Positions 3,001 to 6,000 of a stretch of DNA of 22,963 nucleotides are shown here, piece after piece; within the stretch, counting starts at the first letter, position 1, and each line of letters starts with the position of its first letter. The DNA is from a virus (Duplodnaviria; Heunggongvirae; Uroviricota; Caudoviricetes), in IMG/VR virus record IMGVR_UViG_2802429249_000003, positions 1 through 22,963 of that record; one strand, 5' to 3'. The position numbers are program-made.

Positions 3001-6000
3001 ATCACATCGGTGATCTCCACACTGGCCAGATAGTTACGGATGATGTGTTTTGCCATTGATACCGCCAGATGATTTTTCCCGGTTCCGCAACTACCAGTCA
3101 TAACAAGACTGGTACCGTTCTCCAGCATATCTGGCCAGTTCTCCGCATAGCGGCGACAGGCCGCAAGATTTCTGGCTGCGTCAGGATTAACCTCCAGATA
3201 ATTATCAAACTCGCAGTCCCGAAAACGCAGGGCAATTCCGGCGTTATCAGTCAGCTCTTCCGCCTTGATGGACGACAGCTCCATGGTCAAATCGTTGGCC
3301 TCAGCGATCAAGCAGTCAGGGCAGCATGAAATTTTTTCTCTGTCCTCGCCATTACGATCGCCCCACACCAGAATATGTGTGTGGTATTCGCCATGTTTTT
3401 CGCAACGCCCGCGCCCTTCACGCATCCAGCAAGAACGATAAGGCCATGGCTTTTCGCCCTTCTGAGCAAATGCAATCTCTGCCCGTAACTCATCCATTCG
3501 CGCCTGTAGTCTTTTTTGTTGTTCACGCAGGTTAAACGTCATCATCGCTGTCACCTCAGAATGTCAGTTTGTCACTGGATTTACCGAATTTGTCAGACAT
3601 GGCTCCCAGGCCAGACAGAACATCGACCTGCCGCTGTCGCCCACCTCCGGGAGCGGCTGGCTGTTGCCAGAATTCTTCGAAGTGACGATCGGGTCCAAAG
3701 AACGTCGCAGCCTGCTTCACGAACTGTGTGCCGGTATTTCCTGTAGCACGTACCCAGGCGGCATACCGCTTCACGCCATCAAGCATGGTCTCCGGTTTTA
3801 TTCCCTCCCTGATACGGGCTTTCCAGGCTTTGAAGGCTGCCGACTTGGAATTACCACCAGCACGTTTGGGATATTCCTGCCAGACCTGTTCAAATTCCGG
3901 TGAATATTCCTGTCGGGCGGAACGCGCTGGTGCAGACGCGTCAGCGGATGCGCCAATAGTTGATTCATTGACTGGTTCTTTGACTGGTTCAAAAGAGTGA
4001 CTGGTTCTGGGTGAATCTCCTGCACTACCCCCTGGTGCAACTCCTGCACCACCTGGTGAATTTGCTGCACTAGGTAGTGAATTATTTGCACTACCACCTG
4101 GTGAATCTTTTGCACCATCAAGACGAAGAAGATAAATATTGCTCGAGTTCCCTTTTTCACCTTTCCGGGAAACTTTTTTTACCAGTCCGGATTCACAAAG
4201 AGCCGTAATATGATTCATCACAGAACGTTTGCTAATCTCGCACTGATCAGCAATATGCTGATAGCTGGGCCAGCACTCGCCCTGATCGCTGGCATTATCA
4301 GCCAGCTTAATCAGAACCAGTTTTCGCAACGGATTTCCTACGCGAATTTTCATCGCTTTCACCATCAGCTCCATGCTCATAACACACCTCCCAGGCGTTT
4401 AAACATTTTTCCGGACTGAAACACTGCCAGTGGATAGCTAAGGGTATGAGTGCGTCCCTGAACCTGACAGACAACCTTCTGGCTTTCTGTGTTGACCAGA
4501 CAAACCCGCAGAACGTGACCGTTGCTGGTGGTGAACCACTGCCCCACACGGGGGCAACGGTTGTATCGGTGATACAGAGAATTCACAACACGACGAATCA
4601 TGGACGCACCTCCGCCGTTGTGATGTATTTAACCGGGCTGCCTTTCATTGCGATGGTTTCACACATCTCCGCTGCTTTACGTTCCGCTGTTTTCCTGGAT
4701 TTATAGCGGCGGTGCCAGACAGACGTATCCGTGCGAACTGATACATCGTTTCTGTATTCAGTTGTGAAAATAATAATTTCGTAACTAATCATGGACGCGC
4801 CTCCCATTGATTACGGCAGAAAGCGGTAAGATTCAGGCTGTTCTCTGCCTCATGGAATGCTTCAATGCAGCTCTCGTAGTACCGCATTGTGCGCAGACTT
4901 AACCCAAGCTGAAGCATCATCAGACCATCAAGGGTGATGTAATAACCACGCAGGGAGTCACCATAGATGTGATAAGTACTCGGTATGAAATTGCGGGTAA
5001 AAAATTCGCGTGAGCAGTTCAGATACTCGATTTTGTCGACGATGTTCTGGTGCATGCGCTTAAAGTGGCAGGCAACATGCAGGGAGAAAATAACGGCCTT
5101 GCCGTTGACGACTTCGATTTTCAGGTATGGGGAAGTTGGGACTGTAGCCATGATGGCAGCCTCCGTATGCAATGGATAACTTCCACCACCGGAGGTTCCA
5201 ATCTCACTGGTGGTGAACTGGACAGGGTTGGAACTACCGGCGCATACGGAAACCGGCGAGCCTTTCGGCTCCCCTGCCCAGCCCACCATAATTCTGGCGT
5301 GCGTGAGCGCGGACGATAAAAAAGACGCTGGCGCGTCATATATCGCCGTATGCAATTCCGGGGTTCCAATCCCGGCACCCGCTTTATAAGGTGCAGAGAC
5401 AGTGTAACGTCCCGAAATTGCAGAATCAATATTTAGGCTTGAAACATTCATATGCTTACTGGTATTTTTACTAACGCAAATGTTCTTGGATGTTACTGGC
5501 TTACTTCTTTTGTGAAGTTGCCTTTACTAACGTTGAGCGAGCCGGGCCACTCCCCGGCTTTTTTTTCACCGCTGCCAACCAATAACCTGAAATAACCCCA
5601 TTTTCGGGTGATACCAGCGAGTCCCTCGCGGTTCTGCTTCCTCCATAACCCGATAAAAAGCAGCCATAAACGGTTCCACAGCAACAATTGCGCGACGTGA
5701 TAACAATCCGTCCGGCGTCATAAACTCGTGGGTATCTGTAGGAATTTGATAGGCGTTCACCAGATTGCGGCATTTATCATCTGACAAACCGGTTTTTGCT
5801 TTCAGTTGGCGATATCCGGCATAGCCCTCACGAATGGTACCCCTTTTGATTTGCTCAACTGTTTCGGCAACATGGCTGACTTTTTCTTCCACCTGAGTGA
5901 TCCGTTTCTGCTGACGAACGGCTTCAAGAGCCATCGCAGCAACCATTTCGATTTCGCTCATTGGCTTACGGATCTGTTCTTCCAGTTCGCGCCAGCGATC

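Follow-up and report, generated by a model that had tools for sequence, protein, structure and literature searches.

Where does a lambdoid prophage start its replication when its initiator is not a homologue of lambda O, and which DNA does that initiator read? We address this question on a stretch of 22,963 nucleotides (positions 1 to 22,963 of the IMG/VR record IMGVR_UViG_2802429249_000003, hereafter the window), which is part of a lambdoid E. coli prophage and which carries a replication initiator gene with repeated sequences inside it. An earlier note had proposed these repeats, at 3968-4110, as a putative origin of replication formed by two families of iterons. This was the right place, but the feature runs from about 3964 to about 4115. 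In our view, 3964-4115 is probably the replication origin of the prophage, embedded in the linker-coding part of its own initiator gene, and this interpretation appears well supported by comparative evidence. The best reading, to which we give a good degree of confidence, is that of a lambda-style in-gene origin that would be served by a different family of initiators and would carry an unwinding or assembly element specific to that family.

The N-terminal domain of the initiator matches Pfam HTH_36 (PF13730; 43.6 bits for a cut-off of 25), and the protein matches PHROG 270, 'replication initiation protein', with an E-value of 2.3e-90, which places it among the HTH_36-type phage replication initiators (PF13730; PHROG 270/8540). 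AlphaFold2 predicts a winged-helix DNA-binding domain for residues 1-88 (4117-4380; predicted local distance difference test, pLDDT, 78-91), then a disordered linker that bears the origin repeats (residues 89-158, 3907-4116, with a pLDDT below 50 for residues 91-158), and finally a helical C-terminal domain (residues about 159-234) followed by a disordered tail. The layout of the region is directly visible: the repeats at 3964-4115 lie inside the initiator open reading frame (ORF) and encode residues 89-138, a stretch rich in Gly, Ser, Pro and Ala between the DNA-binding and the C-terminal domains, which is the interdomain linker already recognized in the earlier note. Across relatives, the N-terminal domain hardly changes over its first ~47 residues, and the variation lies in the recognition helix (residues 49-58) and in the wing. 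These related proteins form at least 5,549 clusters, all of them named merely 'helix-turn-helix domain-containing protein'. A DnaD-like replisome organiser was also considered and rejected, as the protein reaches 24.4 bits against Pfam DnaD_N (PF21984) for a cut-off of 27; a fold search with the initiator returned generic winged-helix hits only, all with an E-value above 0.009, the DnaD N-terminal domain (2v79) being one of many.

The main part of the repeated region is an array of five dyad-symmetric units, GTGMA-N5-TGCAC, whose centres are separated by 24, 21, 21 and 24 base pairs (bp). They had been described as four units of roughly 20 bp of the form TGCAC-n-GGTGAAT; the repeats are present, but this description is out of register with the natural unit, of which there are five copies. 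Shuffles contain 0.10 matches to this pattern on average and none out of 100 reaches the observed five, and no further copy exists anywhere in the window. To follow the units among relatives, two samples were available: 124 loci from viral contigs, collected by means of a pair of the 10-mers described below, and 80 loci from bacterial contigs (one genome per species), chosen by N-terminal peptides of the initiator only. The arms of the iterons follow the recognition helix, a co-variation directly observed over 41 helix variants with distinct arms in about 190 genes. The helix ISKRSVMNHI pairs with GTGMA-N5-TKCAC, ISKRSVMRHI and CDKRTAMRHI with GTGAC-N5-GTCAC, IGRSTVKLHI with GGGGCAG-N3-CTGCCCC (as in the Shiga toxin Stx2 phage 24B too), IDRSTVRKHI with GTAGGCC, CSKSAVRxHI with TGCCA-N5-TGGCA, and MSRKTAIGHI with GTGTA-N5-TACAC. 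The iteron class of the window is found in 3 to 7 copies per gene, 21-24 bp apart. Because the spacings include 22 and 23 bp, 44 of 126 related genes have their iterons translated not in one frame but in two. The palindromic units thus have the behaviour of iterons bound by the initiator, as they change with its recognition helix and are not tied to a single reading frame, and we regard them as putative binding sites for initiator dimers. Dyad symmetry, helical phasing, independence from the frame and co-variation with the helix are traits of DNA sites bound by a protein and not of a coding repeat, which would not require the inverted repeat found in each unit.

These traits bear on the simplest of the alternatives, in which the repeats would only encode a flexible linker, by a sequence of low complexity that is prone to slippage, and would have no function as DNA. 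The Gly/Ser/Pro/Ala-rich, disordered character of the encoded linker fits this explanation, as does the iteron copy number, which differs among close relatives. It is nonetheless already strongly disfavoured, and we give it hardly any credit, as every unit is dyad-symmetric, the units co-vary with the recognition helix and lie in different frames within single genes, and the synonymous sites of the adjoining 10-mers are frozen. The palindromes could otherwise be operators for autoregulation of the initiator or for copy control, through roadblock or handcuffing, with the true origin elsewhere in the prophage. Dimeric winged-helix proteins sitting on inverted repeats are typically repressors, and plasmid Rep dimers repress at inverted repeats (PMC5043065). 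Against this stand the lack of any other iteron-like array or such tandem repeat in the 23-kb window, the position between domains and the spacing of the units, both of which match ori-lambda and the annotated P22 origin, and the location of the gene directly upstream of the loader and helicase genes, so that we hold an operator-only role to be improbable.

Some further observations concern the array. In one alignment (A2), the near-identical initiators P0020, P0022, P0023 and P0046 differ by whole iteron units, the array being heavily deleted in P0020 and containing about twice the window's number of iterons in P0023; they also differ by one EPVK 10-mer more or fewer. These differences appear to show that expansion and contraction of the repeats are ongoing. 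Two initiator ORFs, of 133 amino acids in Pseudomonas bharatica (L145) and of 118 amino acids in Erwinia tracheiphila (L178), end at the 10-mer element following a frame change inside the iterons, and are probably decaying prophage copies. The iterons also create the Q/H-rich ORF that had been noted as spurious and antisense to the initiator: the ORF exists and is indeed spurious here, but it shares the strand of the initiator and differs from it in frame. In relatives, the corresponding alternative reading, VVQEIHQ, occurs only as single frame-shifted iterons within real initiators.

The second component of the region is formed by three exact copies of TGACTGGTTC, on the plus strand at 3969-3978, 3981-3990 and 3998-4007. 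The window contains no other match to this 10-mer, even when one mismatch is allowed, and a hand calculation gives a chance expectation of about 0.04 exact occurrences over both strands; in a shuffle test at one mismatch, which ignores exactness and clustering, 17 of 100 shuffles reach three matches. Here the idea of two iteron families only held for the palindromes. The 10-mers belong to a ~40-bp element, CACCCAGAACCAGTCACTCTTTTGAACCAGTCAATGAACC, which hardly varies among relatives that span at least 15 gammaproteobacterial genera and is kept irrespective of the iterons (at least 10 types), of the C-terminal domain or of the helicase partner. We therefore reinterpret the supposed second family as an element conserved at the nucleotide level, with a presumed function in initiation. 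BLASTN finds 37-54 bp around the 10-mers to be 89-97% identical in phages of Vibrio, Klebsiella, Stenotrophomonas and others, between flanks that cannot be aligned. In the unbiased genomic sample, chosen by N-terminal peptides only and counted here over 77 genes (from Pseudomonas, Enterobacter, Proteus, Xenorhabdus, Aeromonas, Shewanella, Marinomonas, Aliivibrio, Marinobacter and others), 65 carry at least two copies of the 10-mer within one mismatch, for 0.03 per gene in shuffles, and 48 distinct sequences yield the consensus CACCCAGAAcCAGTCACTCTttTGAACCAGTCAAtGAACC, whose register relative to the last iteron is fixed.

The constraint on this element acts on the nucleic acid, since its synonymous sites are frozen while the codons of conserved N-terminal residues are saturated, and since the same 10-mer is read in different frames. 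Arg is encoded by AGA in 62 of 62 cases (8% of Arg codons elsewhere in these genes) and Ser by AGT in 62 of 62 (background 22%), and the other positions show ACC (39/39), CAC (49/49), GAA (135/136; background 52%) and GTC (92/105; background 27%), all of these being counts from sequences related by descent and so not independent events. As a control, 30 residues of the N-terminal domain with a conservation of 90% or more were taken from the same genes: there, the most frequent codon accounts for just 54%, and conserved N-terminal residues use 2 to 6 codons each. On the sense strand of the window, the copy at 4007-3998 is read as R-T-S-H and the copies at 3990-3981 and 3978-3969 as E-P-V. In Shewanella relatives the copies are 15 bp apart and both encode E-P-V, in Aliivibrio relatives the spacings are 12 and 14 bp, and the spacer between copies varies in sequence and in the peptide that it encodes. 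As a separate observation, the locus of Shewanella profunda (L187; CACCCAGAATCTATCAATCTTGAATCTATCAATGATCC) has three identical substitutions in both 10-mers (GAATCTATCA), which suggests a concerted change, by gene conversion or by co-evolution with the binder.

One may still accept the iterons as the origin and hold that the 10-mer element is kept for a protein or mRNA reason, such as a docking motif for a conserved host factor (RTSHS-EPV-EP) or a translational signal. Most relatives have this peptide, all 124 viral loci and the majority of the genomic ones keep it in one frame, and disordered linkers such as the one it lies in commonly harbour short linear motifs. On the other side stand the freezing of all synonymous sites in genes whose conserved N-terminal residues use several codons, one 10-mer that encodes two unrelated peptides, RTSH and EPV, the Shewanella and Aliivibrio relatives that keep the 10-mer yet alter its frame and spacing, and the variable spacer. 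The RNA, moreover, is unstructured as a single strand and folds worse than shuffles (z-score +1.4). We thus find this explanation unlikely. When the whole strand of the origin is folded as DNA, the z-score is -1.7 because the iterons are palindromic. No promoter or terminator signal was found in 3400-4700, so that an internal promoter built on the TTGACT within the 10-mers finds no support.

The partners of the element also inform us about what it belongs to. It is found with DnaC-like and DnaB-like proteins, as in the window, with DnaB alone, with a gp4-like primase-helicase in phage 24B, or with no adjacent helicase gene in Vibrio phage D67, and the C-terminal domains of the genes that share it are dissimilar. 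The element therefore associates with the family of the N-terminal domain and not with the helicase partner. In one locus (L003), an HTH_36 N-terminal domain is joined to a C-terminal domain that matches P22 gp18 (38% identity, E-value 3e-17), with a DnaB-type helicase gene directly after it as in P22; this locus carries the 10-mers and not the AT-rich segment of P22, which lambda shares despite its different iterons. Each N-terminal family thus has variable iterons together with a conserved neighbouring element of its own. Because L003 shares the gp18 C-terminal domain, the systems of the window and of P22 exchange modules. The Stx1a phages, for their part, carry the C-terminal half of the window's initiator at 94% nucleotide identity and match the window over 3556-3960 only, with a junction at 3960/3961. 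From sequence comparison, they would represent a third type of in-gene origin joined to the window's C-terminal domain. In the Stx1a phage Stx1_14744 (L206 2905-3090), the N-terminal domain has no Pfam hit and differs from that of the window, as do the iterons, of a GGTTTCCC type; the place of the window's 10-mers is taken by four 12-bp direct repeats, CAGAGAWTACNN. A G/C palindrome is also observed just past the conserved element in L003 (CCCCCTAACCCCCAAACGGGGG, 2960-3000) and in P22 (CCCCCTTACCCCCTAAAGGGGG, L125 2960-2990), where it accompanies the C-terminal domain common to these otherwise different initiators. The C-terminal tail of the protein, encoded by the last ~36 codons (3556-3666), is another variable part: the gene aligns with most phage relatives only from query base 109-112 onward, and alignment A2 contains at least three unrelated versions of the tail among proteins that are 75-98% identical elsewhere. 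The tail is probably the part matched to the downstream loader or helicase.

Such exchanges could mean that the 40-bp element is mainly a recombination linker, a short stretch of common homology that persists by allowing phages to swap the N- and C-terminal replication modules and without a role in initiation. Homology does break at its edges, at the Stx1a junction and, in other phages that match the window only from ~3974 onward, on its other side. Strict thresholds for mosaicism (at least 90% identity on one side and less than 60% on the other) revealed almost nothing, and relaxed ones gave 32 pairs of genes that are at least 80% identical on the N-side and unrelated on the C-side, which speaks for a linker, as do the dissimilar C-terminal domains. 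The Stx1a junction, however, joins an origin devoid of the element, which implies that the exchange does not require it. A linker needs neither internal direct repeats, nor a fixed register with the last iteron, nor identical substitutions in both copies, and any conserved functional site would serve as a recombination site as a by-product. For these reasons we judge a linker-only element to be quite unlikely.

We return to the element as a part of the origin. Duplex stability has a local minimum there in the window, the position is that of the conserved AT-rich unwinding region of lambda and P22, and the gene's least stable 40-mer falls within the element in ~45% of relatives. By position and logic, it may be a family-specific unwinding or assembly element, and it seems the likelier unwinding segment compared to its alternatives. 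Several points weigh against this reading, beyond the shared descent of the codon counts. The opposite flank of the iterons, 4116-4180, is an alternative candidate for the unwinding site; it is as unstable as the element in the window, and the least stable 40-mer lies on that flank in 24 of 64 relatives (~38%). The conserved element is only moderately A+T-rich (~42% G+C), and the constancy of its frame and of its peptide may reflect an additional role at the protein level. There are no DnaA boxes within 1 kb of the origin, and their count in the whole window is at chance level, which is neutral for a lambda-like mechanism. Finally, the searchable literature, which left older subscription literature outside, gave no experiment on this family of initiators, so that the case for an origin is built on analogy and on the comparison of sequences; it is on these grounds that we infer origin activity, along with the identity of the unwinding flank and of the 10-mer binder. 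The same literature contained no description of this family's origin or of the 10-mer element: the 10-mer was found in unrelated primer sequences only, and the papers on the "Eru" replication regions of Stx phages and on the binding of O proteins to iterons deal with other modules or with lambda-type O, while a preprint on the plasmid pIGMS31 had no bearing on the matter.

The mechanism that we propose would start with early transcription from the immunity region, which would yield the initiator. Dimers of its N-terminal winged helix would bind the five iterons, about two helical turns apart, and would form a nucleoprotein complex as lambda O does on ori-lambda. This complex would destabilise a neighbouring segment, most likely the conserved 40-bp element with its three GAACCAGTCA repeats, and the invariant part of the N-terminal domain may then touch the 10-mers in single-stranded form, while the variable C-terminal domain would recruit the DnaC-like loader and the DnaB-like helicase of the phage. 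A stronger version, which we put forward as a tentative and rather doubtful possibility, is that a very large family of winged-helix phage initiators of the non-AAA+ kind would have in GAACCAGTCA a dedicated, sequence-specific element for both unwinding and assembly, read by their invariant N-terminal face, probably as single strands. If this were true, the GAACCAGTCA repeats would play in phages the part of the DnaA-trios or of the RK2 13-mers, here inside a coding sequence and with a conservation that extends from Escherichia to Shewanella, Vibrio and Pseudomonas.

The features of the origin and of its surroundings are collected in Table 1.

Table 1. Coordinates of the initiator gene, of the sequence components inside it and of neighbouring genes in the window.
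Feature	Position	Strand	Remarks
Antiterminator Q gene	615-1025	-	
DnaB-like replicative helicase gene	1279-2670	-	Pfam DnaB_C 244 bits; PHROG 19; TIGR00665 DnaB E 1.4e-91
DnaC-like AAA+ helicase loader gene	2667-3554	-	Directly downstream of the initiator gene
Replication initiator gene, 274 amino acids	3556-4380	-	HTH_36, PHROG 270, AlphaFold2 domains
Q/H-rich mechanical ORF	3798-4160	-	Iteron array read in second frame; not a gene here
Family-wide conserved element	3964-4010		Abuts last iteron; three direct 10-mers, GAACCAGTCA on sense strand
Five dyad-symmetric iterons GTGMA-N5-TGCAC	4011-4025, 4035-4049, 4056-4070, 4077-4091, 4101-4115		Whole array 4011-4115
Second low-stability A+T-rich iteron flank	4116-4180		35-38% G+C; encodes wing hairpin of DNA-binding domain
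cI-like S24 repressor gene, immunity region	7323-8054	+	

The initiator gene is part of an early operon that runs leftward, opposite the cI-like S24 repressor gene, and that successively comprises Rha/Ash-type regulators, two small ORFs, the initiator, the DnaC-like and DnaB-like genes and the antiterminator Q. The product of the loader gene matches Pfam IstB_IS21 (56.3 bits) and PHROG 50, 'DnaC-like helicase loader' (E-value 2.8e-89), as well as the NCBIfam DnaC model, below the cut-off of that model. The isolated phage PhiR49_2 has the same gene order as the window, with an initiator gene that is 97.8% identical and a copy of 3940-4125 that is 100% identical. Parts of 2600-5500, which covers the initiator gene and its neighbours, are matched by 1339 of 5426 complete E. 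coli genomes (about a quarter), and a plasmid collection gave 15 matches, several of which are phage-sized (about 34-54 kb) or chromosome-length records. Elsewhere in the window, positions 1-83 contain 11.9 perfect tandem copies of the heptamer CTGGTCG (100% matches, score 166), in an array cut by the window edge. A toxin-antitoxin module of the hok/sok type lies at 255-578 on the minus strand, with a Hok-like ORF at 255-467 and an Rfam match to the sok antitoxin RNA at 405-578 (minus strand; 116.9 bits for a gathering score of 59). A mechanical ORF at 4789-5451 (220 amino acids) matches Pfam Phage_ASH and pRha, and Rfam places a C4 antisense RNA (5206-5293) and an isrK RNA (5318-5394) within it, on the minus strand. 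This suggests an antirepressor module controlled by C4 in the manner of P1 and P7, and the 220-amino-acid ORF is therefore probably not a single real gene.

Related initiator genes are present in many Shiga-toxin phages and in prophages across Gammaproteobacteria, and in these prophage records the initiator carries only its generic helix-turn-helix name and the origin is unannotated. The origin, together with the rule by which the helix predicts the iteron, offers a way to predict the replication specificity and the incompatibility of co-resident prophages, and knowledge of the origin would permit the building of origin plasmids. The frozen 40-bp element is a concrete target to understand how a small winged-helix initiator devoid of ATPase opens DNA, and DNA opening by such initiators has been called an open question in review (PMC5043065). 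The locus is also a clear case of a DNA signal overriding codon choice in a gene, which bears on gene annotation and on selection tests.

Repeats inside the gene of the origin-binding protein are also found at SPP1 oriL, in gene 38, and at the origins of other replisome organisers of Firmicutes phages. There, a helicase loader and a helicase are encoded downstream, and the protein families and the hosts differ from those of the window. Iteron plasmid origins (RepA, pi and TrfA types) have direct-repeat iterons to which Rep monomers bind, DnaA boxes and an A+T-rich unwinding element with repeats. Only the repeat-bearing flank is analogous in the window; an origin of this kind was rejected, as the window's iterons are individually palindromic and no DnaA box lies within 1 kb. 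For the unwinding 13-mers of E. coli oriC and of plasmid RK2 oriV and for the DnaA-trios, what counts is the precise sequence together with the number and arrangement of the repeats, which the initiator binds in single-stranded form (PMC5043065). The GAACCAGTCA repeats, candidates for such a role, resemble them in position and in repeat character, being short direct repeats that adjoin an initiator-binding array. Those elements are A+T-rich and serve DnaA or plasmid Rep proteins with two winged helices, whereas the window's repeats, compared with the 13-mers, are 10-mers of moderate G+C content within coding sequence.

The closest comparison is with the lambdoid phages themselves, in which in-gene iterons are a known and accepted feature of the initiators, annotated as such in the P22 and lambda records. 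Ori-lambda, inside gene O, consists of four 18-bp iterons at 39034-39118 followed by an A+T-rich unwinding region. The earlier note had described the window as mirroring this arrangement, and this holds for the anatomy. In both cases, the origin lies in the gene between the parts for the DNA-binding and the partner-binding domains, with 4-5 dyad-symmetric iterons that have a 5-nucleotide spacer between their arms and are about two helical turns apart; from the N-terminal domain, both genes run through the iterons and then the conserved element to the C-terminal domain; and the origin is within an early transcript, from the early rightward promoter in lambda (PMC5043065). Of the traits that define a lambda-type origin, the window thus has the in-gene location, at least four dyad iterons of ~18-24 bp and the co-variation of iterons and helix. 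It lacks homology to lambda O: the initiator matches HTH_36 and not Phage_rep_O in Pfam, and BLASTP finds no similarity to P22 gp18 (E-value 5.3), hence it is not a homologue of lambda O. The iteron sequence is also unrelated, the adjoining element is made of 10-mer direct repeats where lambda has a purine-asymmetric A+T tract, and DnaC-like and DnaB-like genes of the phage follow, where the P protein of lambda hijacks the host DnaB.

In P22, the annotated rep_origin (32840-32984 in NC_002371) is likewise an in-gene iteron origin, inside gene 18, followed by the gene of a phage DnaB-type helicase. Gene 18 contains four ~20-bp repeats, and phage L has six 11-bp repeats (PMC8022706). The N-terminal domain of gp18 is Phage_rep_O, unlike that of the window's initiator, and its iterons are of the CCGAATCGGTAAAA type. 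The P22 sequence GAATCAGTCAA was considered as the same 10-mer and rejected: it is actually the degenerate last iteron of P22, and lambda has nothing similar. Beside its own iterons, P22 has a conserved flank, a lambda-like ACACAAAAGACA / ACACAAAAGACAnTATACAAAAGA segment, so that lambda and P22, with different iterons, share an adjacent ACACAAAAGACAnTAT(T)ACAAAAGA segment. In the aligned loci (L207 520-570 for lambda, L125 2930-2985 for P22), the common neighbour of the unrelated iterons reads ACACAAAAGACA(C/A)TAT(T)ACAAAAGA. In lambda, this neighbour of the iterons is the unwinding region (PMC5043065). The window's conserved element is unrelated to it in sequence. Variable iterons beside a conserved neighbour, as in lambda and P22, mirror the arrangement in the window's family. 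The biology of this origin follows the lambda paradigm, and what is unexpected is a frozen 40-bp element in a very common prophage module.

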